From Anaerolineales bacterium (GTDB taxonomy: Bacteria > Chloroflexota > Anaerolineae > Anaerolineales > UBA11858): a stretch of 64,000 bases of DNA. Positions 1,970-18,077 of this stretch are shown in pieces. The first letter of the stretch is position 1, and the number at the start of each line of letters is the position of its first letter. The stretch covers positions 13,038 through 77,037 of the forward strand of contig JBGCVQ010000051.1 of NCBI GenBank assembly GCA_045888315.1. The letters are read 5' to 3'. The notes beneath the pieces were generated by a model. That model did not search any database. It saw nothing but the letters and a program-made list of their open reading frames with translations, and was not told where the DNA came from. Made by a program: the position numbers and the translations under genes.

Positions 1970-3238
1970 ATGAAACTCACCCGGATGAAGTTCAGACTCA
2001 AGATAATTCCCTATATCCTGCCTATCCTGTTCTTGAATCAGCTGCTGTCACCCCGCAAAGGCTGGATGATCCTCCTGGTGGGGTTGACAACAGCGTTTGT
2101 GCTCAGTTATTCCTGGGCGGTAACCCTCAAGAACGGAATCACCCTTGTCCGCGAGATGCGCTTCGGATGGTCCCAGGTAGGTGACCATCTCCAGGAACGG
2201 ATCAACCTCGATAACAGCGGCTGGGCACCAGCAGCCTGGATTTACCTGGAGGACCATTCAGACCTGGCGGGATACTCCGCCAGCAGGCTGACCAGGATCG
2301 GGGGAAATGCTCACCGGCAGTGGTTCGAGAGGGGAGTATGTGAAAGGCGGGGACTGTTCACCATCGGCCCGACAACCATCTACACCAGCGATCCTCTGGG
2401 ATTATTCGAGATCACGATTGAATACCCTGCAACATCGAATATGATGGTCATGCCTCCCATCGTCCGGCTGCCAGAGATCCAGGTGGCGCCAGGCGGCAGG
2501 ATCGGTGAAGGGGTTAATACCAAAAGTTCCTGGGATTATACAGTCACAGCCTCTGGCGTCCGCGAGTACCTGCCGGGAGACAGCCTGCGATATATCCATT
2601 GGCCGACCTCTGCCCGCCGGGGAGAATTGTTCGTCCGCACCTTTGACAGCACGCCAACCAGTGATCAATGGATCTTCTTGGATATGAACGGAAAGGTCCA
2701 CGCCGGAGAGGGCGAAGACGCTTCAGAAGAGCATGCGATCATCCTGGCTGCCTCGATGATGAACCGCTCCCTGGAGAATGGCTTGGCAGTAGGCCTGGGA
2801 GCAAACGGCCGGGAGCTTTCCTGGTACCAGCCTCGCTTTGATGAGACCCAGAAGTGGACGATCCTGCGGGCTCTAGCCCTGCTTGAAAAAGGGGACCAGC
2901 CCCTGGCTCGTTTACTAGAAGTTGCCCGCCAATCCCTCCGCTTCCGGTCCAGCATCATTGTCATCACCGCTGACCTCAGCGGGACCTGGATCCAGCCGCT
3001 GCTGCTGCTCAGAAAGAAGGGGATCATCCCCACCGTTCTAGTGCTCAATGCGCCTGCCTTTGGGGGGAGAGGCAACCTGGGATTCATTCAAGATCGACTT
3101 CTTTCCCTGGGGATCAATCATTTCACGATTGACCCGGATTTTCTGGATGGTATGGAACTGCAGCTCACCCCTGCGACCCAAACTAAGCGCGAAGAATATA
3201 TTGAAGCGAGGAAAGTGCACTGGAGGCCGCTGGTATGA
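1970..3238 (+). CDS. DUF58 domain protein (MoxR-associated, vWA-like)
   Basis: Two N-terminal TM helices and the DUF58 signature REYLPGDSLRYIHWPTSARRGELFVRTF. Its stop overlaps the next gene (ATGA-type). Confidence 0.85.
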   Translation: MKLTRMKFRLKIIPYILPILFLNQLLSPRKGWMILLVGLTTAFVLSYSWAVTLKNGITLVREMRFGWSQVGDHLQERINLDNSGWAPAAWIYLEDHSDLAGYSASRLTRIGGNAHRQWFERGVCERRGLFTIGPTTIYTSDPLGLFEITIEYPATSNMMVMPPIVRLPEIQVAPGGRIGEGVNTKSSWDYTVTASGVREYLPGDSLRYIHWPTSARRGELFVRTFDSTPTSDQWIFLDMNGKVHAGEGEDASEEHAIILAASMMNRSLENGLAVGLGANGRELSWYQPRFDETQKWTILRALALLEKGDQPLARLLEVARQSLRFRSSIIVITADLSGTWIQPLLLLRKKGIIPTVLVLNAPAFGGRGNLGFIQDRLLSLGINHFTIDPDFLDGMELQLTPATQTKREEYIEARKVHWRPLV

Positions 3239-5631
3239 GCACTCTCCTCGGTTCTCTCCGCAAGAAGGTCCCGCTCACTCAAGTGCTGTATATGTTATTG
3301 ATCTTCCTAAGCATGCGCGCTGTGCTTTTGGGTGTGGAATTAGTTGTGCGGGGAACGTCCGTGGCTGTGCTGCAGGTCATCATCCTCTTTGGCATTCTCT
3401 TGGGCTGGCTGTTAGCCCGATCCAGGATCAAATTGAGGCTGGCCGCACCGATCGCCCTGCTGTGCGGGATCGTCCTAACCGTGCTCCGGGTCAGTGGAAT
3501 GGGTAATGTGCTCTGGGATCTGCTGGGCGCCGGCCTGGGGTATCTCTGGCGCTATGCCCTTGAGAGGTCAGCCAACCCTGACCAATTGATATTCCTGACC
3601 TCTGTCCTCCAAGCGCGGTTCCTGGAAAGCTTGAACAGCATCTCCTTGTGGGTGAATGACCTGGCGACCGGGTTTGCAGTGTACAACCAGATCAGCACCC
3701 TGCTGTCCTGGGGATTGATCCTCTGGGTCTTTTCCTGCTGGTTTGCCTGGACTACTTTTCGGATGGATCAACCGATCTGGGGGATCCTCCCCCCAGGCGT
3801 GCTGCTATCGATCATGATGACCTATACCCTGGAGAGAAGATACACTTTAGTGATCTTGCTGGGCGCTGGACTGATCTTGATTGGCATGGTCAACTTTGAC
3901 GCCAAACAGCGTTCCTGGGAGCAGAATGGAGTCAAAGGGGCTGAAATCATCCGGGAGCGGGTATATTTGGCGATCCTGGGCTTCTCACTGTACACCATGG
4001 CATTTGCGGGTTTGATGCCCTCCATTCGTATCAGTCCCATTGCCGATCGTTTTGAGAAATTGGTATATGGAACCGAGGATTCAGAGGGAGGTGAGGGAGC
4101 TGCCGCATCGATCGAGGTGGGCGGTCTTAACAGCGAGCTGTACTCCATTGAAAGGTTCGCTGGCCTTCCCCGGCAGAAGCTGATCGGCTCAGGTCCTGAG
4201 CTGGCAAAACGGGTGGTGATGATCGTCAGCTATCCCACAACGTCTTTTGTGGACAGCGAACTGCCCAACGCTGCCCGTTATTGGCGGTCTTATACCTATG
4301 ACCGCTATACCGGCAGCGGTTGGCAGTCCAGCCCGACTGTTGAGGTCAGCTATCAGCCCGGCCAGGAGATCTCCCAGGTGGTCTCGGATTCCGAGGAGAT
4401 CATCACCCAGGAATTCCGTCTGAGCAATACGGTGAGAGGTACCCTGTTCTCCGCCGGACCACCGGTGACGATCGACCACGAGGTACTGGTTTCTTGGCGG
4501 TCGGATGATGGTGATGGGGCGGCTGGTGTGGGGGCGGTTGACGGCGGAGAGGACATCTTCGCGGTTACCTTTGATGCCCTGGTCTACCAGGTTCGTTCCC
4601 TGGTACCTCTGGCGACCGATGACCAGCTGCGGGAGGATTTCAGCGTTTATCCAACCTGGGTATCTGACCGCTACCTGGATCTACCTGAAAGTCTGCCTGA
4701 AAGAGTGCTGGATCTTGCCCTGGAGATCACCAAGGATCAACCCAGCCGCTACGACCAGGCCAAGGCGATCGAGAGCTTCTTGCGCACTTATCCTTATACG
4801 CTGGATATCTCTGCACCGCCCCAAGATCGGGATATCGCCGATTATTTCCTGTTCGACCTTCAAACGGGTTATTGCGATTATTATGCGACGTCCATGGTAG
4901 TGCTTGCCAGGGCTTCTGGTCTGCCTGCCAGATTGGTCGTTGGGTACGTTGGGGGATTGTACGATCCTGACAACGACTATTACCTGGTCTCTGAAGCGGA
5001 TGCCCATACCTGGGTCGAGGTCTATTTCAACGGCTATGGCTGGATCCCCTTTGAACCCACAGCTGCCAGGAGCTTGATCTCGGAAGAAGCTCAAGCCCTT
5101 CCTCTGCCGCCGGAATTGGCCAATTTGCCTCAATCCATCGAAACCCAAACCGAGCGCCATTTTCCGTACTGGCAGCTGGTCCCCGCTTTACTGCTGGCTG
5201 CAGGCCTGGGGTGGGTTGTGTACAGCCAGGCAGACCTGGCTCGCCTGCGGGGCATGGAAACTGCCAGCCTGGCCCTGGTCCTTTACCAGCGGCTTTACCG
5301 CTACGGCCGCTGGATGGACCTGGGTCATCGAAAATCAGACACGCCCTTTGAATTCAAAGAAAAGCTGATCGCTTTCCTCAACGAGAGCGCTGCTGCCCCC
5401 AGGAGGATGAAAAGACTGGCTGGTTTCCAGGGTGAGATCGATCAGCTGACGGACCACGCAGTAACTGCCTTCTTCAGCTCCCAAGAGCTGAGCAGGAATT
5501 TGAATACAGAGTTACTACAAACCTGGCTCAGCTTGCGATCGAAACTGAGGCAGGTGGTGTGGCGGAGCTGGCTGCGGACGCTGGTGAGCTGGTTGTTCTT
5601 CTGGGAAAAAGACAGGAATGGATATAATTGA
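3235..5631 (+). CDS. Transglutaminase-domain membrane protein (TgpA-like)
   Basis: Polytopic N-terminus. Transglutaminase core GYCDYYATSMVVLARASGLPARLVVGY..DAHTWVEVYF..GWIPFEPT (Cys-His-Asp/Glu). Confidence 0.85.
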   Translation: MSTLLGSLRKKVPLTQVLYMLLIFLSMRAVLLGVELVVRGTSVAVLQVIILFGILLGWLLARSRIKLRLAAPIALLCGIVLTVLRVSGMGNVLWDLLGAGLGYLWRYALERSANPDQLIFLTSVLQARFLESLNSISLWVNDLATGFAVYNQISTLLSWGLILWVFSCWFAWTTFRMDQPIWGILPPGVLLSIMMTYTLERRYTLVILLGAGLILIGMVNFDAKQRSWEQNGVKGAEIIRERVYLAILGFSLYTMAFAGLMPSIRISPIADRFEKLVYGTEDSEGGEGAAASIEVGGLNSELYSIERFAGLPRQKLIGSGPELAKRVVMIVSYPTTSFVDSELPNAARYWRSYTYDRYTGSGWQSSPTVEVSYQPGQEISQVVSDSEEIITQEFRLSNTVRGTLFSAGPPVTIDHEVLVSWRSDDGDGAAGVGAVDGGEDIFAVTFDALVYQVRSLVPLATDDQLREDFSVYPTWVSDRYLDLPESLPERVLDLALEITKDQPSRYDQAKAIESFLRTYPYTLDISAPPQDRDIADYFLFDLQTGYCDYYATSMVVLARASGLPARLVVGYVGGLYDPDNDYYLVSEADAHTWVEVYFNGYGWIPFEPTAARSLISEEAQALPLPPELANLPQSIETQTERHFPYWQLVPALLLAAGLGWVVYSQADLARLRGMETASLALVLYQRLYRYGRWMDLGHRKSDTPFEFKEKLIAFLNESAAAPRRMKRLAGFQGEIDQLTDHAVTAFFSSQELSRNLNTELLQTWLSLRSKLRQVVWRSWLRTLVSWLFFWEKDRNGYN

Positions 5632-5637
5632 TAGAGG

Positions 5638-6603
5638 ATGGAGCTGCCCATGGAAGATGTTAAGGAATTAACCACCAAAGTCGTACAGAATATCGAGAAG
5701 GTCATCATCGGAAAGCGCCGGGCAGTTCAGCTGGCTGTCCTGGGGCTGATCTGTGAAGGGCACGTGTTGATCGAGGACGTCCCAGGTGTGGGGAAGACCA
5801 TGCTTGCAAGAAGCCTGGCTCGATCGCTTGACTGCTCCTTCAGCCGGATCCAGTGTACTCCGGATATGCTTCCCAGCGATATCACGGGCGTAGAGATCTA
5901 CGACCAATCGGCCAAGGAATTCAAATTCGTGCCGGGGCCGATCCACAGTCAGATCGTCCTGGCGGATGAGATCAACCGGGCGACGCCAAAGACGCAATCA
6001 GCTTTGCTGGAAGCTATGCAGGAACGCCAGGTAACGATCGGTACGGAAACGCACATCCTGCCAGAGCCTTTCATGGTGCTGGCGACGCAGAACCCGATCG
6101 AATACGAAGGCACTTTTCCGCTTCCTGAGGCTCAACTGGACAGATTTTTTGTGAAGGTCAGTATAGGTTATCCGACCACGCTGGAAGAGATGTCCGTGAT
6201 CGAAAACCAGCAGATCGTTCATCCGATTGATTCCATCGAACCGGTCACCACTGCTGAAAAGATCAAAGCTGTCCAGCAGAAGATCAGGCAGGTCTACATC
6301 GCTGAGGCAGTGAAGAGGTACATCGTGGAGATCACCCAGAACACCCGGGCCGCTGAGTCTGTCTACTTGGGAGCAAGTCCCCGAGGAAGCCTGGCATTGG
6401 CCCGGGCCAGCCAAGCTTGGGCGGCGATGTATGGTCGGAATTATGTGATTCCGGATGATGTCAAAATGCTGGCCGAAGCCACTTTGGGCCACCGGGTGAT
6501 CCTCAGCTCCTCCGCCAGGCTGCAGGAGATCCGCACCGGGGACCTGATCCGTGATATCCTGCGCGATGTCCCCGTCCCCGGGGGAGATTACAAGGGTGAG
6601 TAG
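5638..6603 (+). CDS. MoxR-family AAA+ ATPase
   Basis: Walker A GVPGVGKT, Walker B ILLADEINRA-type (VLADEINRATPKTQSALLEAMQE), and the typical 320-aa MoxR length. Confidence 0.9.
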   Translation: MELPMEDVKELTTKVVQNIEKVIIGKRRAVQLAVLGLICEGHVLIEDVPGVGKTMLARSLARSLDCSFSRIQCTPDMLPSDITGVEIYDQSAKEFKFVPGPIHSQIVLADEINRATPKTQSALLEAMQERQVTIGTETHILPEPFMVLATQNPIEYEGTFPLPEAQLDRFFVKVSIGYPTTLEEMSVIENQQIVHPIDSIEPVTTAEKIKAVQQKIRQVYIAEAVKRYIVEITQNTRAAESVYLGASPRGSLALARASQAWAAMYGRNYVIPDDVKMLAEATLGHRVILSSSARLQEIRTGDLIRDILRDVPVPGGDYKGE

Positions 6604-6817
6604 GGATCTGCGGGAATACACCAAGAGCACCCAGCTGCGCTTGGTGGTGGGTTTCCTGCTGGTCATCTTTCTGGTAGGGGATGGCCTGATCTTCTTTTTT
6701 TACGGGAGAGGGGCGGGACTGGCGGGTTTGATCTGTCTGCTGGGCACCCTGATCCCAGTCTCACTGGTGGTGCTGTTCCTGTGGGTCGCCGACCGGGCAG
6801 TAAAAAAGCAGCGCTAG
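6596..6817 (+). CDS. Small two-TM membrane protein (hypothetical)
   Basis: The ORF is open from 6551. The GTG at 6596 has a GGGGAG Shine-Dalgarno 9 nt upstream and overlaps the moxR stop by 8 nt. The protein is hydrophobic (LVVGFLLVIFLVGDGLIFFF.., LICLLGTLIPVSLVVLFLWV). Confidence 0.5.
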   Translation: MSRDLREYTKSTQLRLVVGFLLVIFLVGDGLIFFFYGRGAGLAGLICLLGTLIPVSLVVLFLWVADRAVKKQR

Positions 6818-6855
6818 ATTTACGATCCGCTAGCGTGTGATCTATCCTTAATAAT

Positions 6856-6890
6856 AAAAAACGGCTTTCCCATTCGGGAAAGCCGTTTTT
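6856..6890. terminator. Bidirectional rho-independent terminator
   Basis: AAAAACGGCTTTCCC-ATTC-GGGAAAGCCGTTTTT lies between convergent genes. Confidence 0.85.
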
Positions 6891-6893
6891 CAA

Positions 6894-8762
6894 TTAATCA
6901 AGGGCTTGATGGAGGATTTCGATCACATCCAGGACCTGGATCTCTTCCGCCAGGCCTTTGGACCGCAGCGCGTCGTCGAACATGATCAAACAATAAGGGC
7001 AGGCAGTAGCGATCGTCTTGGCCTCAAGGTCAAGGGCCTGCTCCAGCCTGTGGCGGTTGATACGCGTCTCCGCGGCGGTTTCCAGCCACATCGCGCCACC
7101 GCCTCCTCCGCAGCAGAAGCTGTTACCCTTGGCATCCACCATTTCCAGGGCGGGATGGCCTGCTTGATCCAGCAGGGCCCGTGGTTGAGCGTAGATATCG
7201 TTGTAGCGGCCCAGGTAGCAGGAGTCATGGAAGGTCAGTCTCCCGTAATCCTTACCGTTCCCGGCCTTGAATCTGAGCCGAGAGAGATGCTCCGCCAGGA
7301 ATTCCGACCCGTGCTGGACCTGATAATTGCCTCCAAAGCGGGGGTATTCATGTTTGAGAGTGTTCAAGCCGTGAGGGCAGAGGGTGACGATCCGCTGGAA
7401 CTTGTATTCCCCAAAGAGCTTGATGTTTTCTTCGGCAGCTACCTGGAAGAGATATTCATTCCCCATCCGCCTGGCAGTTTCCCCACAGCACATCTCTGCG
7501 TCGCCCAGTACTCCGTAATCGACTTCCAGCTTGTTGAGGATCTCGATGAAAGCCCGGGTCACTTTGCGGTTGCGATCATCGAAGGATCCTGCACAGCCTA
7601 CGAAATAAAGCACATCCACTTCATCTCCAGGCGAGAGGATTTTCAGGTCCAGCCCTTCTGCCCAGCCCATCCGGGTTTGAGAAGGCATTCCCCAAGGATT
7701 ACCCTGGCGCTCGAAGTTCCGCAGCGTCTCACCCACTGTGCCAGGAACTTCCCCGGTCATCAGCACCTGGGCTCGGCGAATGTCAATCACCTCCTCAGGA
7801 GGTCGGATGAAAGCTGGGCAAACATCCAGGCAGTGCCCGCAGGTGGTGCAGGACCACAGGAACTCTTCCTCCAGCAGCCCTGGATTGAGATCGCTTTCAG
7901 AGCTGTTCCCAGGATTCAGGAGGGATTCCGCCATCCCTTCCCGGAGCATTAGCAGCAGTGACCGGGGGGAATAGGCCAGACCGCTCCTCGTCGCAGGGCA
8001 GACCTCCTCGCAGCGCCCGCACTGCAGGCAGGCATCGAAAGCCAGCAGGCTCAAAGAGGAAAAATCCTTGATCTCCCCCGCACCTAATACTTCCGCATCC
8101 ATCAGATCAGGGATGCTCTCCAGCTCGCCTTTTGGGCGGCTGGTTTTCAAGAAGATCTGGATAGGCGTGAAGACCATGTGGCGGAGTTTTGTGAAAGGAA
8201 TGCTGGCTGCCAGCATCAATCCCAACCCGACATGGCTCCAGAACAGCCAGGGGTGGATCACGGCTGCCTGCCCGGGTGTCAACCCTGTGCTTTCCCACAA
8301 AGCCGCACTGAACTTACCGATTGGCGACCAGTTTCCCCAGGCTGGGTTGAAAATGTATATTCGGAGGCCTTCAGTTGCAAAGCCCACCAGGGGGATGAGC
8401 GCCAGCATGATCAGGGCGAACAGGTCGTCCCAGGAGGTTTCCATGAATTTCGGCCGGATGATCCAGCGCCTGATCAGCGCCATCAATACGCCGACCAGGA
8501 TCATCACACCTGCCAGATCCATGATCAGCTCGTAACCAAAATAGACCGGCTGGCTGAATAAGGGCCAGGTGAAAGGCACAAACAAGCCCATCTGCATGAT
8601 CTTGATGGCAGTTCCCACTACCTGGATGAGCACACCCCAGAAGATCAGCAAGTGCATGATGCCTGGATAGAGCTTTTTCACTGTCCTGACCTGTCCCAAG
8701 GCATAGACCAGGAGATCACCGATCCGGGCCCAGGGTTTTTCAAGGCGTTGTTGTGTGGTCAC
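6894..8762 (-). CDS. Membrane-bound Fe-S oxidoreductase: fusion of a NarI/DsrM-like polytopic domain and an HdrD/DsrK-like domain
   Basis: The N-terminal ~200 aa has multiple TM helices with His residues (MHLLIFWG, IHPWLFWSHVGLG, KLRHMVF). It is followed by 2x CxxCxxCxxxCP (CLQCGRCEEVCP, CTTCGHCLDVCP) and two CCG-type Cys-rich domains (EMCCGETA, SFCCGGGGG). The GTG start overlaps the Rieske stop (GTGA). Confidence 0.8.
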   Translation of the reverse strand: MTTQQRLEKPWARIGDLLVYALGQVRTVKKLYPGIMHLLIFWGVLIQVVGTAIKIMQMGLFVPFTWPLFSQPVYFGYELIMDLAGVMILVGVLMALIRRWIIRPKFMETSWDDLFALIMLALIPLVGFATEGLRIYIFNPAWGNWSPIGKFSAALWESTGLTPGQAAVIHPWLFWSHVGLGLMLAASIPFTKLRHMVFTPIQIFLKTSRPKGELESIPDLMDAEVLGAGEIKDFSSLSLLAFDACLQCGRCEEVCPATRSGLAYSPRSLLLMLREGMAESLLNPGNSSESDLNPGLLEEEFLWSCTTCGHCLDVCPAFIRPPEEVIDIRRAQVLMTGEVPGTVGETLRNFERQGNPWGMPSQTRMGWAEGLDLKILSPGDEVDVLYFVGCAGSFDDRNRKVTRAFIEILNKLEVDYGVLGDAEMCCGETARRMGNEYLFQVAAEENIKLFGEYKFQRIVTLCPHGLNTLKHEYPRFGGNYQVQHGSEFLAEHLSRLRFKAGNGKDYGRLTFHDSCYLGRYNDIYAQPRALLDQAGHPALEMVDAKGNSFCCGGGGGAMWLETAAETRINRHRLEQALDLEAKTIATACPYCLIMFDDALRSKGLAEEIQVLDVIEILHQALD

Positions 8763-9193
8763 GCGGGCCCTCCTATGTAGATCTCACCATTGGTGATCGA
8801 TAGCGGGAGCTTTTCCAGCGGTAGGGGAGGTGGACCGGAGATCACATTTCCCTCATAGGGTTCGAAATATCCCTCATGGCAGGGACAGTGGATGACTCCT
8901 TCCTCCTGGTCCCATTTACAGATGCAGGCGAAATGGGTGCAAACCGCGGAGTAGGCCCGGAAACCCTGGTCGGTGTGGATCACCAGTGCTGGGTAGCGGC
9001 CGAAGGGAACCGTCAGGCTCTGACCAAGGGGGATATCCTCTTCCAAGCCAACCCTGACCGGGTCCGATGGTGTTTCTTCCAGGGAAGGGGGATAAAAATA
9101 GGCTAAGAAGGGCGCCAGCAAGGCGGATAATCCTGTTGCTGCCAAACCTTTCTTGATCAGGTCTAAGAAGTCGCGCCTGGTGAAATTGCTCAT
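8759..9193 (-). CDS. Rieske [2Fe-2S] protein with Tat signal
   Basis: Tat signal RRDFLDLIKKG. Rieske boxes CTHFAC and CPCHEGYF. Its ATG directly abuts the upstream stop (TAG|ATG). Confidence 0.9.
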   Translation of the reverse strand: MSNFTRRDFLDLIKKGLAATGLSALLAPFLAYFYPPSLEETPSDPVRVGLEEDIPLGQSLTVPFGRYPALVIHTDQGFRAYSAVCTHFACICKWDQEEGVIHCPCHEGYFEPYEGNVISGPPPLPLEKLPLSITNGEIYIGGPA

Positions 9194-9589
9194 CTAGCTC
9201 ACCTCCCCCCAGATAGTCAGGGCAATGATGATGATCACGGCTGCCAGCGCAAACCAGAACCGGATGCGAGAAGGCTTTTTTGTCTGGTCCTTTTTCGGGT
9301 CCAGGAAAGGCCAGACCATCAGCAGTAGAACGGCAACAACCGGGGCAGTCGCCCCCAGCGTTTCGGGGATGAAGCGCAGCAGCTGGTAGAGCGACAGGAA
9401 ATACCATTCCGGCTTGATATGGGCTGGTGTTTCCATCGGGTCAGCCGGGGCGCCCAGGCCGACCGGTATGAACAAGCCGATCGCCCCGATGACCAGGATC
9501 AAGATCCCAACGCCCAGGGCGACCTTAGCTTCCAGGGCCAGGTGATCGGGGTAGAACGGAACGCTTTTATCTTGTTTATCTTCTGTCAT
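9194..9589 (-). CDS. Cytochrome b C-terminal part / subunit IV (PetD-like)
   Basis: PFYPDHL..KPEWYFLSLYQLLRF motif and three TM helices. Confidence 0.85.
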   Translation of the reverse strand: MTEDKQDKSVPFYPDHLALEAKVALGVGILILVIGAIGLFIPVGLGAPADPMETPAHIKPEWYFLSLYQLLRFIPETLGATAPVVAVLLLMVWPFLDPKKDQTKKPSRIRFWFALAAVIIIIALTIWGEVS

Positions 9590-9622
9590 CAGATTGCTCC
9601 TGTAGATCTTTTGCCTGAGACA

Positions 9623-10609
9623 TTAAAGCGGCTTCATGATCCCTTGTTTGCGGATCATGATGAAGTGCAGCAGCATCGAACCTACCGTCACCAGCGGCAG
9701 GATCAGGATATGCAGGGCAAAGAACCTGCTCAAAGTCAAGCTGGTGATGCTCCATCCTCCCCGTAGGAAGACCAAAGCCAGTTCCCCGATCACGGGGATG
9801 CTGCCAGCGATCTCCGTACCCACGGTCGTTGCCCAGTAAGCCCTCTGATCCCAGGGCAGCAAGTAGCCGGTAAATCCGAAAGCCAGGGTCATCACCAGCA
9901 GCAAGCTGCCAGAGACCCAGTTGAGCTCGCGGGGCGCCTTGTAGGCTCCCATGATGAACACTCGCAGCATGTGAGCGCAAGCCATGACGATCATGCCGTT
10001 GGCGGACCAATGGTGGATCATTCTCACAGCAGATCCCAGCAGGACCTCATTCTCTATGAATTGGATGCTGGCATAGGCTTCCGCTGGCGTCGGCTTATAG
10101 TAAAAAGCCAGCATGATCCCTGTAGTCCCTTGGACCAGGAACAGGAAGAAGGTCAGCCCGCCCAGGCAGTACCACCAGCGGCGCTGCCACTCAGGGACGG
10201 GTTTGCTGAGGATCGGTTTGAAAAAATCAGAGACCTGGTAACGCTCATCTACCCAGGCCGCGATCCGTTTCGGGATCGGCACCCAGGCCTGGCGGTCCTT
10301 CCAAACAGCGGCGCTGCGGGCGATTCCAAATAGCAGGGCTACTCCGGCCGCTCCAAATGCGATCCAGCGCAGCAAGGGCACCCAGATGTTAACGAAGGAC
10401 CCATCGACATGGCATTGGAAGCAGGTGTCCTGTTCTGGCTCCGGGGTGTTGATCTGCAGTCCCTGGTTGGCAGCCTGGGCAGGGGATCCCTGCGGGGGAG
10501 AGGCACTGTAGGCATGGACTGCTGCCGCCGTAAACAAGACCAGAATGAGACTGGTCAGGAGAATAATGGCCGTTCGGTAGACAGTTTTCATAACATACCT
10601 CGACTGCAA
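9623..10609 (-). CDS. Cytochrome b6-like protein with an N-terminal signal-anchor plus single CxxCH heme-c motif extension
   Basis: Cytochrome b N-terminal domain (GIMLAFYYKP..RMIHHWSANGMIV..FTGYLLPWDQRAYWA..FFALHILILP). It is preceded by a TM helix, CFQCH (nt 10409-10423) and a further TM helix. Confidence 0.85.
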   Translation of the reverse strand: MQSRYVMKTVYRTAIILLTSLILVLFTAAAVHAYSASPPQGSPAQAANQGLQINTPEPEQDTCFQCHVDGSFVNIWVPLLRWIAFGAAGVALLFGIARSAAVWKDRQAWVPIPKRIAAWVDERYQVSDFFKPILSKPVPEWQRRWWYCLGGLTFFLFLVQGTTGIMLAFYYKPTPAEAYASIQFIENEVLLGSAVRMIHHWSANGMIVMACAHMLRVFIMGAYKAPRELNWVSGSLLLVMTLAFGFTGYLLPWDQRAYWATTVGTEIAGSIPVIGELALVFLRGGWSITSLTLSRFFALHILILPLVTVGSMLLHFIMIRKQGIMKPL

Positions 10610-10841
10610 AGGAATGGTCGACTGGAACCGCAGCTATTGACTTGTTGTACTGAGGTGAACTTGATGTTTGCCATTCAACAGGTACCCTCGAACGAGCGTT
10701 GTCAGGAAGTTGATCAGGGGATTCGCGGCTGTGTTTGCTTCCCGGATCAAATGGTTACATCAAATAGGTGTTTTCAATATAGCATAAACTGACCTGCTAC
10801 GCAGGTGTCATTCTTCACAGGTCAAAGGAGTTTTCCCCCGG

Positions 10842-11336
10842 TCACTCAGATACGCCCAGATCATCCAGGACCAGTTCCGCCACCTGCGGAATCGCCTCTG
10901 CCACCCGGGGTGTGGGTTCCTCCCCGAACTCCAGGATGTTCTCCACTTCAACCGCATAGATGGAGAATTCCTCCGGGACAGAATAGCCCAGCTGGCGGGC
11001 TGCATCCAGGGCAGTCACCAGGGATGTGTCGTGAGCGGAGGTGCTGTGCTGGGTTGGAGCGCCGGTTCTGAGATCCTCTAAGGTCAGCTGATGGATCTTA
11101 CCGGGGGTCGTGGCAGTGGGATCCAGGTAATAGGCATCGATCAGCACCACCCGCTGGTAATCGAGGGTCCTTTCCATCAAGCGCATCCCACCGGCGCTGG
11201 CTTCGGTGATGGTCAGCCAGGGGTTGTTATCCAAATTAACGCGCTTTTCAACCAGGCGGGCGACCAGAACTCCCACTCCGTCATCCGTGAGTATGGGATT
11301 TCCCAATCCGATCACGATCGTTCTTTTTCTTTCCAT
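10842..11336 (-). CDS. [NiFe]-hydrogenase maturation endopeptidase (HybD/HoxW/FrhD family)
   Basis: IVIGLGNPILTDDGVGVLVARLV N-terminus, 164 aa, immediately downstream of the hydrogenase large subunit. Confidence 0.85.
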   Translation of the reverse strand: MERKRTIVIGLGNPILTDDGVGVLVARLVEKRVNLDNNPWLTITEASAGGMRLMERTLDYQRVVLIDAYYLDPTATTPGKIHQLTLEDLRTGAPTQHSTSAHDTSLVTALDAARQLGYSVPEEFSIYAVEVENILEFGEEPTPRVAEAIPQVAELVLDDLGVSE

Positions 11337-11342
11337 AAGAGA

Positions 11343-11384
11343 AGTAACCAGCTCCCAGAGTGGTGCCGCTGGTCGCTGGTTACT
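11343..11384 (-). other. Stem-loop between mvhA and the maturation protease gene
   Basis: 10-bp inverted repeat AGTAACCAGC...GCTGGTTACT with an inner CCAG/CTGG pairing. On the mRNA it ends about 7 nt before the protease ATG, which lacks an obvious Shine-Dalgarno. Confidence 0.4.
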
Positions 11385-11415
11385 GTGTGGTTGTAATAGA
11401 CAGCCGCCTGCTTTC

Positions 11416-12903
11416 TCAGCCCAGGTACTGGCTGAGGGTCTGGACTAGGCGTCCGTCCTTATCTTTGATGACGATCTCTAGCGGCATCTGCCCTGGCAGT
11501 GAATGGGTTGCGCAGGACATGCAGGGATCGTAGTTTCTGAAGGCCATTTCCACCTGGTTGAGGAGCCCTTCGCTGACCTTGCCGCCCTTGATCAGACCCT
11601 GAGCAGCTTTCTTGATCGACATAGCGATCGGGGCGTTGTTGTTGGTTGTGCCCACGATCAGGTTGACGTCAGTCAGGATGCCATTTTCGTCGGTCTTATA
11701 GTGATGGGTCAGCGTCCCGCGGGGGGCTTCTACGCTGCCGACGCCTTCGGTAGGCGTGGATGTGACCACCGGCCGGACGTTGGGATCCGTGATCTCGGGA
11801 TCCTGGGCCAGCTCCAGCATCCGTTCTGCTGCGTAGAGCAGTTCAACCAGGCGGGCCCAATGGGTAGCCAGGCGATGGTGGACCGGTGCATAAAGGCCGT
11901 TGGTCTTCTTGGAGCCCAGAGTCTCATAGAATCGTTCATAGTGCTCCTGGGCTTTTGGCGTTGCCATTCCGTCCGCGGCATTGAGCCTGGAGAGAGGAGT
12001 GGCGCAGTAGACGCCGCTGTCAGGTCCATCAACAAAACCCTTCCAGCCCACATCCTTGAGGTAGGGGAATTTCAAGTAGGACCAGGGTTCGACCCGCTCG
12101 GCGATGTGCTTGGCATAATCCTTCGCGGGATATTTCACCAGCTCGCTGCCATCTGGACCGGTGACCCGGATCAGACCATCATAGAAATTGATGCGATTTT
12201 GATCATCGACCGTTCCCATGTAATAGGTCTGGTGGGTAAAGGCATCCGAGACGATCAGATCGACATAGGCTTGATTGGCCAGGACCACGTCATCAAAGAG
12301 CTTGAGGCTGAAAAGCGCGAAGTCAACGTTCTTCTTGGCATATTCCAGGACCAATTCGTGCTCTTCCTTGGTGAGGGACTTGCTCCACCCACCCGGTAAA
12401 CCGGCCACTGGATGGACTCCACGGCCGCCGAGCATCTTGATCACTTCGTGGTTCCTTTTACGGCATTCGATGACCTGGATGCCGATGTCCACACCTACTT
12501 TGTGGATCACACCCAGGATGTTCCTCTCCGCCGGATTCGCGTCCGGACCAAGCACGAAATCCGGTCCGCCGAGGGCGTAAAAGTGAACGGTATGGTCGGT
12601 GACGTAAAAGGAGGAGTAGAACAGCTCCCGGAGCTTCTTGACCACCGATGAAGGTTCCACACCGAACAGCGCGTCAAGGGCTTTGGTGGCAGCCATGTGG
12701 TGGGCTTCTGGACAAACGCCGCAGATGCGGTTGGTGATCCTTGGCATCTCTTCCGCCGGCCTGCCAACGGAGAACTGCTCAAAACCGCGCAGTTCCGGTA
12801 TTTGCAGATACGCGTTCTCTACATTGCCCTGGTCGTTCAGGAAGATCTCGATCTTCCCATGGCCTTCCAGCCGGGTAATGGGATCAATGGTTATCCGTTC
12901 CAT
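11416..12903 (-). CDS. mvhA: [NiFe]-hydrogenase large subunit, Mvh/group-3c-like
   Basis: RLEGHGKI and RICGVCPEAHH N-terminal Ni-Fe ligands. C-terminal DPCMSCATH followed by a ~28-aa cleavable tail. It sits with mvhG, mvhD and hdrABC. Confidence 0.85.
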   Translation of the reverse strand: MERITIDPITRLEGHGKIEIFLNDQGNVENAYLQIPELRGFEQFSVGRPAEEMPRITNRICGVCPEAHHMAATKALDALFGVEPSSVVKKLRELFYSSFYVTDHTVHFYALGGPDFVLGPDANPAERNILGVIHKVGVDIGIQVIECRKRNHEVIKMLGGRGVHPVAGLPGGWSKSLTKEEHELVLEYAKKNVDFALFSLKLFDDVVLANQAYVDLIVSDAFTHQTYYMGTVDDQNRINFYDGLIRVTGPDGSELVKYPAKDYAKHIAERVEPWSYLKFPYLKDVGWKGFVDGPDSGVYCATPLSRLNAADGMATPKAQEHYERFYETLGSKKTNGLYAPVHHRLATHWARLVELLYAAERMLELAQDPEITDPNVRPVVTSTPTEGVGSVEAPRGTLTHHYKTDENGILTDVNLIVGTTNNNAPIAMSIKKAAQGLIKGGKVSEGLLNQVEMAFRNYDPCMSCATHSLPGQMPLEIVIKDKDGRLVQTLSQYLG

Positions 12904-13922
12904 TAAGCAGCTCCTTTGCCATTCTTGACACGTCTAAGGATCGAGTGGGCCATACTGAAGCGGTAAAATGTGCCGCTTGGATCGGGGATGGTCGCTACAG
13001 CCTCCTGGATGAGGTCTTCCAGGACGTCTTCATCCATGGATTCGTCTCCCACATCCAGGACAGAGGCGATGGCAGAGAGCATCTTCGCTCCCTGGTCAAA
13101 GACACCTTCTGGCGGTCCATAACAGCCCCGACAGCCGATCCCAACCGAGGGGCACAGCGCACCGCAGCCTGAACGGGTGGCGATGCCCATGCAGACGATT
13201 CCCTGTTCAAGCAGGCATTGGTCTGGATCGGGCTGGATCTGGTATGGACGGTAGAAGCGCTCGATGGTCTTTTCCCGCTTCTCGCGGGTGCACTCATCGC
13301 ACAGCGCGGTGGTGCCGGCGCCGATGACCGCCCCAGCGGGCGGCAAGGGCTGACCTTGGGTAAGAGCGCCCACGACCACCTGGAGGACCGCCCAGATCTG
13401 AGGGGGTTCAGGGGGGCAGCCCGGCAGATAATAATCGACATCCACAACCTGATCGAGGGACTTGACCGTGTGATAGAACTCCGGCAGGGTCAATTCGCCT
13501 TCAGGGACCTCGCTGGAGGTTTGAGGCAGGATCTTGTCCGGGTTGTCTATCGAGGGGTTGTTGAAGTAAACCCTTTCCAGGGTGGCTTGCTTAGTGGTCA
13601 GGTTGGACAGGGCGGGTATGCAGCCCTCATAGGCGCAGGACCCAAACGCGACCAGGACCTTGGATTTCTTCCTCAGTAAATGAGCCATTTCCTCATTTTC
13701 TGAATTGCGGATCGCTCCGTTGAATAAGCAGACATCGATATATCCGTCAGGATAAGCTTCCAGGTCTTTGATCTTGAAATCCGCGATGCAGGGGAAGAAG
13801 GCAATATCAAAGACCTCGTCGACTTTAAGGATGTTCTCGTGGATATTGAGAACCGAGATCTCGCACCCGCCGCAGGATGAGGCCCAATACATGGCCAGTT
13901 TTGGTTTTCCGTTTTCTGTCAT
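12903..13922 (-). CDS. mvhG: [NiFe]-hydrogenase small subunit, Mvh-like
   Basis: N-terminal YWASSCGGCEISVLN proximal-cluster motif plus further Cys clusters (CxxC, CGALCPSVGIGCRGC). No Tat signal, so it is cytoplasmic. Confidence 0.85.
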   Translation of the reverse strand: MTENGKPKLAMYWASSCGGCEISVLNIHENILKVDEVFDIAFFPCIADFKIKDLEAYPDGYIDVCLFNGAIRNSENEEMAHLLRKKSKVLVAFGSCAYEGCIPALSNLTTKQATLERVYFNNPSIDNPDKILPQTSSEVPEGELTLPEFYHTVKSLDQVVDVDYYLPGCPPEPPQIWAVLQVVVGALTQGQPLPPAGAVIGAGTTALCDECTREKREKTIERFYRPYQIQPDPDQCLLEQGIVCMGIATRSGCGALCPSVGIGCRGCYGPPEGVFDQGAKMLSAIASVLDVGDESMDEDVLEDLIQEAVATIPDPSGTFYRFSMAHSILRRVKNGKGAA

Positions 13923-13923
13923 G

Positions 13924-14388
13924 TTATACCTCCTCAGCGACCGGGTGGACAGCGCCGTTGCCGCCTAAGACCTTCTGACTCCAGCGTAAGGGCCCCAGTG
14001 CCTTGATCTGTTCTGTCATGCGGTCGACAGCAGCTGCCAGCACGGTGCCTTCCGAGGCAGAAGCCCACAGCAGTTGGACCCTTTCCTGCTCGATTCCCCA
14101 CTGTTCCAGAGTCTTCCGCAGCAAGGTAAAGCGCCGCAGCGCCTTGATATTTCCGTTGACATAGTGGCATTCACCGGGATGGCAGCCGGCGATCAGGACC
14201 CCATCAGCGCCGCTTCTCAGCGCCTGGAGCACGAATTGGGGATCGACCCTACCGGAGCACATGACCCGGATGACCCGCAGGTTGGGGGCATATTTGATCC
14301 TCGCGGTCCCCGCCAGATCGGCTGCCCTGTAGGAGCACCAATTGCATAAGAAGCCTACGATCACAGGTTCGAATTGATCACTCATCAT
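13924..14388 (-). CDS. mvhD: MvhD-type hydrogenase/heterodisulfide reductase [2Fe-2S] subunit
   Basis: FLCNWCSYRAADLAG..VMCSGRVDP..IAGCHPGECHY. Preferred start is ATGATG at 14388 (GGAGGAGG Shine-Dalgarno, ATGA overlap with the hdrA stop). The ORF is open to 14427. Confidence 0.85.
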   Translation of the reverse strand: MMSDQFEPVIVGFLCNWCSYRAADLAGTARIKYAPNLRVIRVMCSGRVDPQFVLQALRSGADGVLIAGCHPGECHYVNGNIKALRRFTLLRKTLEQWGIEQERVQLLWASASEGTVLAAAVDRMTEQIKALGPLRWSQKVLGGNGAVHPVAEEV

Positions 14389-16415
14389 ACCTCCTCCATG
14401 GCGGGCACATCCGCTTCCACATCCCACAGGATGCCTTTCAATTCCGCCAGAACTTGTGTGTTAGTGAAGTGGGCGCCATCGATCACGCCGGATGGGCAGG
14501 CAGCAACGCAGGTTCCACAACCCTGGCACAGGGCTGTGACCACGTGAGAGACTTTCTTCTCTTCATCAAATTCGATCGCGTTGTAGGGGCAGAGATTGTT
14601 GCAGATCCTGCACCCGGAGCATTCATCTTCACGGATGCTGGCCCGCACCGGCTCCATCATCACTGTACCCTGGCTGATCAGCTTGGCTACCTGGGAGGCT
14701 GCGGCGCCACCCTGGGCTACCGTGTCTGGGATGTCCTTGGGACCCTGGCAGGCGCCAGCGATGAAAATGCCGTCGGTCATGGTTGAGACGGGTGCCAGTT
14801 TGGGATGGCGTTCGTTGAAAAAGCCGTCGTAGTCGCAGCCCATCTTGAACAGCTTGGAAACCTCTTCGGCGTCATGACGGGCCTGGATTCCCGAGCTGAG
14901 AATAACCATGTCCACGGCATTCCGCTGCTGGATGCCCAGCAAGGTATTCTCTGCCTGGACAATGAGTTTACCCTCTTCGCCGGGCTTGCGGTCGGCGTCA
15001 GTGATTTCGGCCACTTTGCCGCGGATGAAGTGAGTGCCTTCCTTCAACAGGCGGTGATAAAACTCCTCGTATCCTTTGCCAGGTGTGCGCATGTCAATGT
15101 AGTAGTTGTAGACCTCTGCCTCGGGTAGGTGCTCATGCACCAGATGGGCGAATTTCAGAGAATACATGCAGCAGACCTTGGAGCAGTATTCGTTGTAATT
15201 CTGATCCCGGGAGCCAACGCAGTGGACAATGGCGATGCTCTCCGGCTCGGTGACGCCGTCTCTGAGGACAATATGTCCGCCGGTTGGGCCGGAAGCGTTG
15301 ACCATTCTCTCAAACTGGAGGCTTGTGAAGACATTTGCCAGCCGTCCATACCCATACTGTGGAATACGGCGGGCATCGAACAGGTCGTAGCCAGTTGCCA
15401 GGATGATATTGCCTACATTGAAATTGATCAGCTGGTCTTCCTGCTCGTAATCGATCGCGCTGGTGGGGCAGACCTTTTCACAGACCTTGCACTTCCCGGT
15501 TTGAAAGTACGTGCAGTTCTCCTTGTCCAGCACAGGATAGCCAGGAACAGCCTGGGGGAATGCCCGGTAGATGGCTTTGCGGTAGCTGATCCCAGCACCG
15601 TAGTTGTCATCCAGGACTTTCTGGGGACATTTCTCCTCACAGATCCCGCAGGAGGTGCATAATTCTTCGTCCACGCAGCGGGCTTTTTTGCGCACTGTGA
15701 TATTGAAATTGCCGATATACCCATCCACGCTTTCCACCTCGCTGTAGGTCAGCAGGGTGATGTTATCGTTCTGTCCGACGTCCACCATCTTGGGTGTCAG
15801 GATGCAGGCCGAGCAGTCCAGGGTTGGGAATGTCTTATCGATCTGGGCCATGTGACCGCCAATGGTGCCTTCCCGTTCAACCAGGTAGACATGGTGCCCG
15901 GCCTCGGCCAGTTCCAGGGCCGCGGTGATGCCCGCGATGCCGCCGCCGACGATCATGGTGTTGGGGTTGATGTCCACCGGGATCTTTTCGAGCGGTACAT
16001 GATGGACGACCCTTTCAACAGCGGCGTTGACCAGGGCTTTGGCCTTGGTGGTCGCCGCCTCCTTGTTGTTGGTTGCCCAGGAATCATGTTCTCGGATATT
16101 GGCCATCTCGAACAGGAAGGGATTGAGCCCGCCCCGCTGAGTAGCTTCCCGGAAGGTTTTTTCATGCATGTGGGGAGAACAGGATGCCACCACTACCCTG
16201 GTGAGTCCTTTTTCCTTGATATCTTTCTCGATCAGTTCCTGTCCGGTGCTGGAGCACATGAACTCGTAATGGCGGGACACGACAACATTGGGATTGGATT
16301 CGATCCATTTGGAGACCTCGTCAACGTTGATCGTCCCTGCGATGTTGGATCCGCAGTGGCAGACATAGACGCCAACGCGCTCCTGTCCTGCGGGGGATTC
16401 TTTTATATCACTCAT
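14385..16415 (-). CDS. hdrA: HdrA-like FAD/Fe-S subunit (electron-bifurcating heterodisulfide reductase family)
   Basis: VCHCGSNI N-terminus, FAD fold IVGGGIAGITAALELA, VHCVGSRD, and several CxxCxxCxxxCP ferredoxin motifs. 676 aa. Confidence 0.9.
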   Translation of the reverse strand: MSDIKESPAGQERVGVYVCHCGSNIAGTINVDEVSKWIESNPNVVVSRHYEFMCSSTGQELIEKDIKEKGLTRVVVASCSPHMHEKTFREATQRGGLNPFLFEMANIREHDSWATNNKEAATTKAKALVNAAVERVVHHVPLEKIPVDINPNTMIVGGGIAGITAALELAEAGHHVYLVEREGTIGGHMAQIDKTFPTLDCSACILTPKMVDVGQNDNITLLTYSEVESVDGYIGNFNITVRKKARCVDEELCTSCGICEEKCPQKVLDDNYGAGISYRKAIYRAFPQAVPGYPVLDKENCTYFQTGKCKVCEKVCPTSAIDYEQEDQLINFNVGNIILATGYDLFDARRIPQYGYGRLANVFTSLQFERMVNASGPTGGHIVLRDGVTEPESIAIVHCVGSRDQNYNEYCSKVCCMYSLKFAHLVHEHLPEAEVYNYYIDMRTPGKGYEEFYHRLLKEGTHFIRGKVAEITDADRKPGEEGKLIVQAENTLLGIQQRNAVDMVILSSGIQARHDAEEVSKLFKMGCDYDGFFNERHPKLAPVSTMTDGIFIAGACQGPKDIPDTVAQGGAAASQVAKLISQGTVMMEPVRASIREDECSGCRICNNLCPYNAIEFDEEKKVSHVVTALCQGCGTCVAACPSGVIDGAHFTNTQVLAELKGILWDVEADVPAMEEV

Positions 16416-16418
16416 CGA

Positions 16419-17384
16419 TTATTCCTCCTCCGCCTGGGTTGGCATGGGCAGTTCGGTGTGTTGTTTGCCGCGTTCTCTGGTCCGGACTGGTTTGGGCGCT
16501 TCCTCTGTGATCTTGTCAAGAGCTGGTTGGGCGGAAACGATCTCCTTTCCGAAGCCAAGCTCATTTGCTGGAATTCCAAATGCCAATCCCATCAACTGTG
16601 TGAAATACACGACAGGAATCTTGTAGTTGGTGCCGAAATGGGCGTTGACCGCGTCCTGATAAGCATCCAGGTTGAGCTGACACATCGGGCACAGGGTGGC
16701 GATCATATCGGCTTCGTAGTCTGCCGCGTTCTTGAGCAGCCTCCGGATCAGTTCCAAGGCGGTATTCTCGCTGATCTGGGTCATGTGACCGCCGCAGCAT
16801 TGGGCTTTGAGCGGGAAATCGATCACCGTCGCTCCCAGATTCTTGATGATCTTGTCCAGGGAAGTCGGGTGTTCTGGATCGTCAAATCTCTCCATGTTGG
16901 CAGGTCTGGGAACCAGGCAGCCGTAGTAAGGCGCTACCCGCAGGTTATAAAGCGGTTTGACGACCTTTTCCTTGATAGCCTCATAGCCAATATCGACCGC
17001 GATGGTCTCCAGCAGGTGCTGGACATTGATGGTTCCTGGCTGGTAGCTCAGTCCTCCAGCCTCCAGCGCTTGGTCCACTTTCTCCTTTAACTGTTTGTTC
17101 TCAGCAAGATAGTGGTCTACTTTTTTAAGATTCAAATAGCAGGCACTGCAGGGAGCCACCAGGTTGGTGCTGCCGTTCTGTTTAGCCGCCAGAGCTAGGT
17201 TCCTGGAGACCAGGGCATAGGCAGGGATCTTCTCGATGGCAATCATTTCGGTAGCCCCGCAGCAGTTCCAATCATCGACTTCCACGAATTCAATCCCCAG
17301 CGGTTTCGCTACAGCCATAGTTGAGACGTGGTAGGCGCGGGCATTCTTTTCCAGGGAGCATCCCGGATAATATCCGTATTTCAT
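16419..17384 (-). CDS. hdrB: HdrB-like subunit (two CCG domains)
   Basis: YYPGCSL..NCCG and YYGCLV..QCCGG motifs. Confidence 0.85.
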   Translation of the reverse strand: MKYGYYPGCSLEKNARAYHVSTMAVAKPLGIEFVEVDDWNCCGATEMIAIEKIPAYALVSRNLALAAKQNGSTNLVAPCSACYLNLKKVDHYLAENKQLKEKVDQALEAGGLSYQPGTINVQHLLETIAVDIGYEAIKEKVVKPLYNLRVAPYYGCLVPRPANMERFDDPEHPTSLDKIIKNLGATVIDFPLKAQCCGGHMTQISENTALELIRRLLKNAADYEADMIATLCPMCQLNLDAYQDAVNAHFGTNYKIPVVYFTQLMGLAFGIPANELGFGKEIVSAQPALDKITEEAPKPVRTRERGKQHTELPMPTQAEEE

Positions 17385-17965: not shown

Positions 17966-18077
17966 ACCAGCCTCCTCAATACGTGATTGTGAATTCAACG
18001 ATCTGTATTCAATTAATCAATCAATAAAGGGAAACCGGTAAGAACGTACTAAGTATAGTTAAATGACCAGTTAAACA

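Follow-up and report, generated by a model that had tools for sequence, protein, structure and literature searches.

A Rieske/cytochrome b6 operon of Anaerolineae with an EtfD/EMO-like fourth gene that may encode one integrated membrane complex

Background

No energy converters of respiration and photosynthesis are more conserved than Rieske/cytochrome b complexes. How electrons can enter these complexes on the cytoplasmic side has long been asked, and the answer bears on cyclic flow through b6f and on the NAD(P)-linked complexes proposed for anammox bacteria. The subject of this work is a four-gene operon in a 64,000-nucleotide (nt) stretch of DNA from an Anaerolineales bacterium (contig JBGCVQ010000051.1; hereafter the window, whose positions serve as coordinates throughout). 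The genes are all on the minus strand and encode, in order, a cytochrome b, a subunit IV, a Rieske protein and a 622-residue protein related to EtfD/EMO, here called gene 4. The reading that we favour, and that we regard as evenly poised between right and wrong, is that the products of the locus form a single integrated membrane complex that is peculiar to a clade of Anaerolineae.

The closest described relative of gene 4 is EtfD of Mycobacterium smegmatis (MsEMO; PDB 9OJN), a single polypeptide that combines a NarI-like haem-b domain with two cubane clusters and a pair of CCG domains, and in whose structure H78 and H241 are the haem-b ligands, R306 contacts a propionate, the cluster cysteines are in place and H583 sits on the proximal non-cubane cluster (EMBO J 2026, PMC13083937). 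Gene 4 has the same composition and shares the haem ligands, the propionate-contacting arginine and the proximal-cluster histidine, its H37, H195, R250 and H464 corresponding to EtfD H78, H241, R306 and H583. It differs from EtfD in having neither helix I nor the long disordered C-terminal tail, in carrying CC for CT and CPHG for CPHC at the distal cluster, and in its position, which is not beside etfAB but translationally coupled to a Rieske gene. The EMO of Syntrophus aciditrophicus belongs to the same family and has three membrane-domain histidines in common with gene 4; its proximal-cluster histidine fills the CoM-binding site of heterodisulfide reductase, and its H534/G535 pair, which gives a [4Fe:5S] distal cluster, resembles the CPHG of gene 4 when compared by published residues rather than by direct alignment (bioRxiv 10.64898/2026.08.18.745454). 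The Syntrophus enzyme has five helices, against four in the model of gene 4, together with a distal twin haem, an ETF partner and a reverse redox loop. Neither of the two EMO papers mentions a linkage to Rieske or bc genes.

A NarI-like cytochrome b and a dicluster protein with two CCG domains, linked to quinone or phenazine, also make up HdrDE of the Methanosarcinales and DsrMK(JOP) of sulfate reducers and sulfur oxidisers, as they do gene 4. There, however, they are two subunits, whereas gene 4 is a fusion minus helix I, and HdrDE and DsrMK carry out thiol/disulfide chemistry at an open CCG site where gene 4 has His464, a contrast drawn from EMO structures and the window's own HdrB. The first three genes of the operon resemble the b6f complex and the Firmicute-type b6c complex (1Q90) in their split cytochrome b, four haem histidines, haem ci cysteine, PEWY motif and Tat-signal Rieske protein, but differ in the order cytochrome b-subunit IV-Rieske, in having no gene for cytochrome f, c1 or dihaem c, in an N-terminal extension of cytochrome b with a monohaem CxxCH motif and two extra helices, and in a fourth, cytoplasmic iron-sulfur subunit. 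Cytoplasmic modules joined to such cores have been described, with functions that are themselves only proposed. According to one abstract, anammox bacteria have Rieske/cytochrome b complexes with NAD(P)-linked and multihaem subunits (PMC12954380), and in Acetothermum an rnf-Rieske-cytochrome b cluster joins the core genetically to a cytoplasmic electron-handling module (PMC3267732). The accessory proteins of both are unrelated to gene 4, and no EMO-like subunit is reported in that abstract or for Acetothermum. An earlier note on this DNA had taken the operon architecture as not known to have been characterised. No description of it was found in the open-access literature, including surveys of how bc complexes evolved and of the genomes of Chloroflexi. 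The operon is thus made of known kinds of parts in a layout for which we found no description.

Results

Related loci were collected with gene 4 and with cytochrome b as queries. A search with gene 4 gave homologues of 51-84% identity in 80 species-level genomes, all Chloroflexota and mostly Anaerolineales, and counts of related loci out of 80 refer to these first 80. The order cytochrome b-subunit IV-Rieske-gene 4 was kept in ~70 of them, and cytochrome b was found directly upstream of the EMO-like gene in all except a few loci cut upstream. When cytochrome b was the query, the extended form, bearing CxxCH, had an EMO-like gene behind it in all 49 evaluable loci, whereas the EMO-like gene was absent from all 17 loci of the nearest b6 genes that lack the extension. 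These non-extended genes (47-55% identical; other Chloroflexota, Zixibacteria, Coatesbacteria and Bacillota) lie in operons that run Rieske-cytochrome b-subunit IV and then a cytochrome c bearing 9 to 19 haem motifs, or in the QcrABC layout of Bacillus. Since the cytochrome b query added 28 genomes new to the set of 80, the operon is carried by ~108 species-level genomes. In five of the 80 loci (L026, L028, L030, L043 and L054) only cytochrome b and the EMO-like gene are present, with no genes for Rieske or subunit IV. The shortened cytochrome b of this two-gene variant keeps the c-haem motif and the extension helix and has lost the bH ligands and the haem ci cysteine, the latter being retained in full-length homologues; its b-haem ligands are reduced to the first histidine of helices B and D, which serve the outer-side haem. 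Because the variant retains just these two genes, the cytochrome b/EMO pair is the conserved core of the locus.

The four genes are packed tightly. A 33-nt gap (9590-9622) separates cytochrome b from subunit IV, the TAG of subunit IV abuts the ATG of the Rieske gene at 9194/9193, and the Rieske TGA and the gene-4 GTG start share the sequence GTGA (8759-8762), a 4-nt overlap that is kept in 60 of 65 loci. The cytochrome b reading frame opens at a TTG (10609), but translation more likely begins at an ATG (10591) that has a GAGG ribosome-binding site ahead of it. The earlier note had described four co-directional genes with these junctions and motifs, gene 4 being translationally coupled to the Rieske gene; all of this was borne out by the open reading frames (ORFs) and Pfam, each of its family assignments was upheld by the Pfam profiles, the coupling is backed by the conserved overlap, and the linkage, which had been put forward for survey in relatives, proved to be conserved there.

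The feature that sets this cytochrome b apart is its 108-residue N-terminal extension, made up of a signal/anchor helix, a linker, a CxxCH motif and an extra transmembrane helix. No PDB homologue was found for these first 108 residues. Given the arrangement of anchor helix, linker and extra helix, the CxxCH faces the outer (P) side. Its form here, CFQCH, is the only CxxCH among the 59 ORFs of the window, where ~0.0007 would be expected per protein of the size of cytochrome b. All 73 complete homologues have it, as part of the pattern PxPxxDxC(L/F/I)xCH(I/V)xG directly ahead of the helix, and the extension was found in every complete cytochrome b homologue that precedes an EMO-like gene. A chance motif is ruled out by the low expectation together with this full conservation. 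No separate gene for a cytochrome c (c1, f, dihaem or multihaem) is present in the operon, so that the earlier statement that no c1/f-type cytochrome is encoded holds for a separate gene; it does not extend to a c-type haem site, which is present as the CFQCH on cytochrome b itself.

Behind the extension, cytochrome b is of an ordinary kind. Residues 109-322 can be aligned over their full length with cytochrome b6 of Chlamydomonas (PDB 1Q90_B, E 7.6e-63), the haem-b histidines are all kept, four in number (IHH/CAH and ALH/LLH hold the ligands for bL and bH), and Cys142 in WWYCLGG aligns with YCIGG of 1Q90_B. In the PDB, the Rieske protein is matched best by the Rieske domain of a b6f-type protein (8HN2_A, E 2.6e-17), and both the CTHxxC and CPCH boxes are present, including the disulfide cysteines. 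By these alignments the core is a Rieske/cytochrome b complex of the b6 type, and the absence of a dedicated c-cytochrome gene does not remove it from that family.

A PDB search with gene 4 matched EtfD (9OJN_A) at E 3e-91, covering both the membrane and the soluble part, while HdrB and HdrC matched at only 1e-5 to 1e-3. An AlphaFold2 model of gene 4 (pLDDT 74.5) has four long helices and superposes on 9OJN with a TM-score of 0.81, compared with 0.3 for HdrB and LutA and 0.2 for NarI (Foldseek). Among the homologues of gene 4, H37, H170, H177, H195, H464 and all cluster cysteines are invariant, H464 being present in 37 aligned homologues. The motif holding His464 is CPHG in 16 loci, which form the clade of the window, and CPHC or CAHC in 54 relatives, leaving nine rather than ten cysteines for the two non-cubane clusters in the window's clade. 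HdrB of the window has CSAC and CPMC at these positions, with no histidine; the first half of the gene-4 CCG region matches only EtfD in the PDB, and BLASTP of gene 4 against the window's HdrB aligns the second CCG domain only. NCBIfam profiles scored gene 4 far below their cut-offs for DsrK (30.6 bits against 400) and HdrB (31.4 against 345), and at 36 bits or less for TmcB and HmcF (cut-offs above 700); the best match, thiol:fumarate reductase TfrB, reached 153 bits, also below its cut-off of 385. The matches listed in close-homologue searches with gene 4 were all Anaerolineae relatives, and one NCBI homologue record carries the name 'EtfAB:quinone oxidoreductase'. The likeness to EtfD, His464 and the sub-cut-off scores for DsrK, HdrB, TmcB and HmcF argue that the CCG domains are an electron wire rather than a thiol/disulfide catalyst, and thiol/disulfide catalysis at these domains is unlikely. 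The NarI homology that the earlier note had given the N-terminal domain is confirmed by Nitrate_red_gam and by the match to the 9OJN membrane domain. Its description of the protein as NarI-like/HdrD-like and of DsrMK type stands as regards domain architecture and falls as regards the thiol/disulfide type, given the DsrK score, the 9OJN match and the invariant His464. H170 and H177 could be ligands of an outer-side haem.

The wider family was surveyed among 1.84 billion representative proteins, of which 1839 representatives were retrieved at E<1e-30. One representative, at 54% identity, covers the Anaerolineae clade; the next identity is 40%, and EMOs at about that level span many phyla. No cytochrome b or Rieske gene lies near any of 80 canonical EMO loci, and etfB-etfA stand immediately upstream in 23 of the 80 (Pfam-confirmed). 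Gene 4 departs from the canonical EMO/EtfD pattern on two counts, the four long helices of its model in place of five and the absence of the etfAB association within the 64-kb window. In canonical EMOs, ~43 additional N-terminal residues form helix I of the five-helix NarI fold, and these are absent from the Anaerolineae clade. One homologue, P0244 (728 residues), is a five-helix EMO with its own signal peptide and a CTLCH ahead of helix I, that is, a c-haem fused directly to an EMO.

The missing helix appears to have a counterpart on cytochrome b. A profile of helix I and its basic tail, built from 136 canonical EMOs and searched against the 1186 ORFs of the clade loci, matched two kinds of target only, canonical EMO paralogues and the cytochrome b helix right after CxxCH. 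On cytochrome b, 15 of 16 helix-I domain matches fell on the extension helix (best 17.9 bits, i-E 1e-4). Profile-profile alignment with hhalign joined helix I to the extension helix at 84-86% probability (P 5e-6 to 1e-5), whereas 25 control windows, covering all other helices of the four proteins and none overlapping the extension helix, gave at most 9.6% with P of at least 0.003. Generic transmembrane similarity was rejected as the cause of the match on the basis of these controls. The orientation agrees as well, in that NarI helix I and the extension helix both run from the outer to the cytoplasmic side, and in the extension helix the basic residues come after the transmembrane segment. With helix I lost from gene 4 and a helix-I-like helix gained by cytochrome b, one interlocked complex is likely; the short helix match on which the predicted interlock of the two membrane domains depends is suggestive.

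Candidate cytoplasmic donors were sought in the neighbouring genes. In 37 of the 80 loci (among L019-L080; for example L023:11251-12279 and L052:11897-12886) a fifth gene stands directly after the EMO-like gene and encodes an FdhB/FrhB-like protein of ~340 residues with two [4Fe-4S] motifs. Pfam detects the ferredoxin part alone; a profile of the family matched F420-dependent FdhB in the PDB (9T1S_M, 5.6e-21; 7BKB_E, 3e-18) over nearly the full length. The FrhB-like product is a plausible cytoplasmic input module in the relatives that encode it. It accompanies 34 of 48 CPHC-type loci and none of 13 CPHG-type loci, and in the latter hdrCBA-mvhDGA-hycI lies upstream in 13 of 13 evaluable cases. 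The window has this arrangement, and its hdr/mvh cluster is a complete hydrogenase/heterodisulfide-reductase module of the bifurcating type, whose HdrB carries canonical CCG motifs. The host bacterium is not known to have CoM or CoB. The window also holds, at 53912-54403 on the minus strand beside a TetR regulator, a member of the Ddn-like family of F420H2-dependent quinone reductases, which hints at use of F420 by the host.

ETF was rejected as donor. No ETF gene lies in the window, and such genes occur in one of the 80 clade loci, L014, where the region upstream of the cytochrome b operon (L014:1409-6467) holds a gene for a soluble HdrD-like protein, etfB, etfA and a canonical EMO divided between two genes, one for NarI+Fer4 and one for CCG. 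Because the ETF genes there precede, and go with, the canonical EMO, two EMO paralogues coexist and ETF is an unlikely partner of the cytochrome-b-linked one. Within the 64-kb window, Pfam detected neither dsrC nor dsrJOP nor any thiol-cofactor gene.

The coordinates of the features are collected in Table 1. Gene 4 is the end of the transcription unit, since an intrinsic-terminator hairpin sits right behind it. A scan for consensus promoters found no two-hexamer promoter upstream of cytochrome b, although the same scan also missed the terminator that folding confirmed; by eye, an extended -10-like element in the ~250-nt gap between hycI and cytochrome b (10592-10841) is a lead. Rfam gave no match in the 6-19 kb part of the window. 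In 16-20 loci (among L018-L078) a histidine kinase and a LuxR-type response regulator stand directly upstream of cytochrome b; both are absent from the window. On the plus strand, a cluster of DUF58, transglutaminase-like (TgpA) and MoxR AAA+ ATPase genes (1970-6817) converges on the operon terminator and is kept in several relatives. An 88-residue, two-helix membrane ORF (6551-6817, plus strand) was considered as a part of the operon and set aside; the ORF is conserved, and it belongs to this divergent MoxR/DUF58/transglutaminase cluster. Farther away, the plus strand carries the gene for F-type ATP synthase alpha (34439-36085, 548 residues), followed by those for gamma, beta and epsilon; the Pfam match to its nucleotide-binding domain is split in two stretches, which suggests an insertion.

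Table 1 Features of the operon and its surroundings in window coordinates
Feature	Position	Strand	Evidence or remark
Cytochrome b	9623-10609, likelier 9623-10591	minus	Pfam Cytochrome_B 3e-52
N-terminal extension of cytochrome b, 108 residues	10268-10591	minus	signal/anchor helix, linker, CxxCH, extra transmembrane helix
CFQCH, c-type haem attachment motif, Cys57-His61	10409-10423	minus	sequence motif
Extra cytochrome b helix and basic motif, W70-R100	10292-10384	minus	resembles helix I of canonical EMO/NarI-like domains
Cys142 in WWYCLGG	10166-10168	minus	equivalent of cytochrome b6 Cys35, haem ci attachment
Subunit IV (PetD-like)	9194-9589	minus	Cytochrom_B_C 7e-18; NCBIfam cytb6_f_IV 2.7e-11
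PEWY Qo motif of subunit IV	9401-9412	minus	sequence motif
Tat-signal Rieske [2Fe-2S] protein	8759-9193	minus	Pfam Rieske 4e-11; TRRDFL, CTHFAC, CPCHEGYF
Gene 4, 622-residue EMO/EtfD-like protein	6894-8762	minus	Nitrate_red_gam 2e-10; 4Fe-4S dicluster families; CCG 1.4e-30, twice
Gene-4 four-helix NarI-like haem-b domain	~8148-8672	minus	Nitrate_red_gam, 9OJN
Gene-4 cubane [4Fe-4S] motifs, two (CxxCxxCxxxCP)	7815-8030	minus	C245/248/251/255, C305/308/311/315
Gene-4 CCG (non-cubane cluster) domains, two	6975-7610	minus	C390/425/426/462 and H464; C515/550/551/588/591
CPHG, Cys462-Gly465	7368-7379	minus	His464, EMO-type proximal-cluster ligand; Gly465 for the fifth distal-cluster Cys
Intrinsic-terminator hairpin	6855-6892	minus	17-bp stem, -26.3 kcal/mol, z -7.2, then U-rich tract (folding)
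Extended -10-like element TGCTATATT	10776-10784	minus	by eye only; lead
hdrC-hdrB-hdrA-mvhD-mvhG-mvhA-hycI	10842-17998	minus	directly upstream; Pfam, NCBIfam; candidate electron-input module

Discussion

The integrated complex that we favour would have three parts. One is a predicted b6-type Rieske/cytochrome b menaquinol oxidase with haems bL, bH and ci, the PEWY motif and a Tat-signal Rieske protein; the second is a predicted EtfD/EMO-type module on the cytoplasmic (N) side, with non-cubane clusters, two cubane [4Fe-4S] clusters and a haem b; the third is a predicted exit carrier on the outer (P) side, the c-haem of the cytochrome b extension. A cytoplasmic donor, the FrhB/FdhB-like flavoprotein in most relatives and possibly Mvh/Hdr in the window's clade, would feed the non-cubane and cubane clusters, and this iron-sulfur wire, in which the CCG domains serve with no thiol/disulfide catalysis, would lead to the haem b of the EMO-like module. 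From there electrons would reduce menaquinone of the pool, or else menaquinone at or near Qi/haem ci, oxidation of the quinol would follow at Qo through the Q cycle, and the Rieske cluster and the c-haem would pass electrons to an outer-side acceptor, with conservation of proton-motive force. The single c-type haem on cytochrome b would replace a separate c1, f or multihaem subunit. The earlier idea of a second quinone-reactive or electron-handling arm on a Rieske/cytochrome b core is probably close to the truth, although a disulfide carrier is a less likely partner for that arm than a module of the flavoprotein or hydrogenase kind.

Several results weigh against this reading. We infer the physical association of cytochrome b and the EMO-like protein from genetics and from the helix-I profile match, and that match, while specific, is short (33 columns), and the reciprocal profile lands on EMO N-termini only weakly (best 13 bits). 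No sixth ligand was identified for the c-haem. Neither an FrhB-like nor an ETF gene lies within the window, and the adjacency of Hdr/Mvh is a single clade-level event; since its gain is one change of this sort, Mvh/Hdr as donor here is a lead only, and in the window's clade that module is possibly the donor.

One rival is that two separate enzymes share an operon and work in series through the free menaquinone pool with no contact, an EMO-type donor:menaquinone oxidoreductase and a Rieske/cytochrome b6 menaquinol:cytochrome c oxidoreductase. Both would be complete enough to work alone, as the EMO-like protein keeps its haem-b ligands and all iron-sulfur motifs and no haem ligand, PEWY or Rieske motif is missing from the b6 core, and there are precedents in mycobacterial EtfD, which supplies the pool for a separate bcc complex, and in Methanoperedens, for which HdrDE and a Rieske/cytochrome b complex in series have been proposed. 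We nevertheless consider it unlikely, because separate enzymes sit poorly with the strict co-inheritance of the c-haem extension and the EMO-like gene (49/49 against 0/17), the conserved 4-nt start/stop overlap, the loss of helix I from the EMO-like protein alongside a helix-I-like helix on cytochrome b, and the two-gene variant, which joins a degenerate cytochrome b to the EMO-like gene with no Rieske. There is also a stronger form of the integrated complex, in which one NarI-like fold is split over two polypeptides, with helix I, behind the outer-side c-haem, forming the N-terminus of cytochrome b, and the Q cycle is coupled directly to a low-potential carrier. This form is somewhat unlikely. 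Its carrier could be F420H2 by way of the FrhB-like subunit or H2 by way of Mvh/Hdr, and the machine would act as an electron injector at Qi/haem ci or as a quinol-driven bifurcating or reverse-electron-transport device.

Operation in that last direction can also be put forward on its own: one electron from Qo would go to Rieske, the c-haem and a high-potential acceptor, and the second, via the b haems and the EMO-like wire, to a low-potential acceptor in the cytoplasm, for example F420 or NAD(P) through the FrhB-like subunit. Of the 80 loci, 37 have a fifth gene for a subunit of flavoprotein type, the EMO-like haem b is on the cytoplasmic side as are bH and ci, the Syntrophus EMO runs against the potential gradient using proton-motive force, and the abstract on the anammox Rieske/cytochrome b complexes contains the same proposal, as a hypothesis (PMC12954380). 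No evidence bears on direction, however; menaquinol-type low-potential chains are not known to attain the potentials of F420 or NAD(P), electron movement from the outer to the cytoplasmic side opposes the membrane potential, and the FrhB-like gene is missing from the window's clade, all of which makes this operation quite improbable. A quinone-independent transmembrane wire, running from the cytoplasmic iron-sulfur clusters via one or more b haems of the EMO-like protein to the outer c-haem and on to periplasmic or extracellular acceptors, with Rieske/b6 as a second feeder of the same c-haem, is very improbable. The two-gene variant would suit it, its cytochrome b having only the ligands of the outer b haem beside the c-haem and its EMO-like protein having the cytoplasmic-side haem, as would the CTLCH that the outgroup EMO P0244 carries ahead of helix I and an outer-side haem at the invariant H170 and H177. 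Yet full-length operons retain the whole Q-cycle machinery (PEWY, Rieske, bH and ci), outward flow with no quinone loop conserves no energy, and the outer-side haem is unproven, mycobacterial EtfD having the equivalent histidines and no such haem. Least likely of all is that gene 4 is a quinone-linked thiol/disulfide oxidoreductase of the DsrMK/HdrDE type, its carrier perhaps that of the adjacent HdrABC. Its domain architecture equals HdrE+HdrD or DsrM+DsrK, hdrCBA-mvhDGA lies directly upstream in the window's clade, most relatives have all ten cysteines (CPHC) and TfrB is the top NCBIfam match, yet the scores for TfrB (153 bits against 385), DsrK (30.6 against 400) and HdrB (31 against 345) fall well short. 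EtfD, an electron-transfer enzyme with no disulfide cleavage, is far closer, the invariant His464 stands where both EMO structures close the substrate site while the window's HdrB has no histidine, glycine replaces one cluster cysteine in the window's clade, and dsrC, dsrJOP and thiol-cofactor genes are lacking within the 64 kb.

Conclusions

The operon is a natural case, in more than 100 species of the Anaerolineae, a widespread group of sediments, sludge and the subsurface, of a b6 core joined genetically, and probably physically, to an EtfD/EMO wire. It presents a new way to supply a c-haem, by fusion to cytochrome b, and possibly a membrane fold split across two subunits; if the split-fold form is true, an injector at Qi/haem ci would be the long-sought analogue of the ferredoxin:quinone reductase activity in b6f. 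The usual picture of Anaerolineae is of simple fermenters or of bacteria with an ordinary bc complex, and, if the integrated complex is confirmed, metabolic models of these bacteria would change and the roles of EMO/HdrD-type enzymes would widen past ETF and heterodisulfide chemistry.

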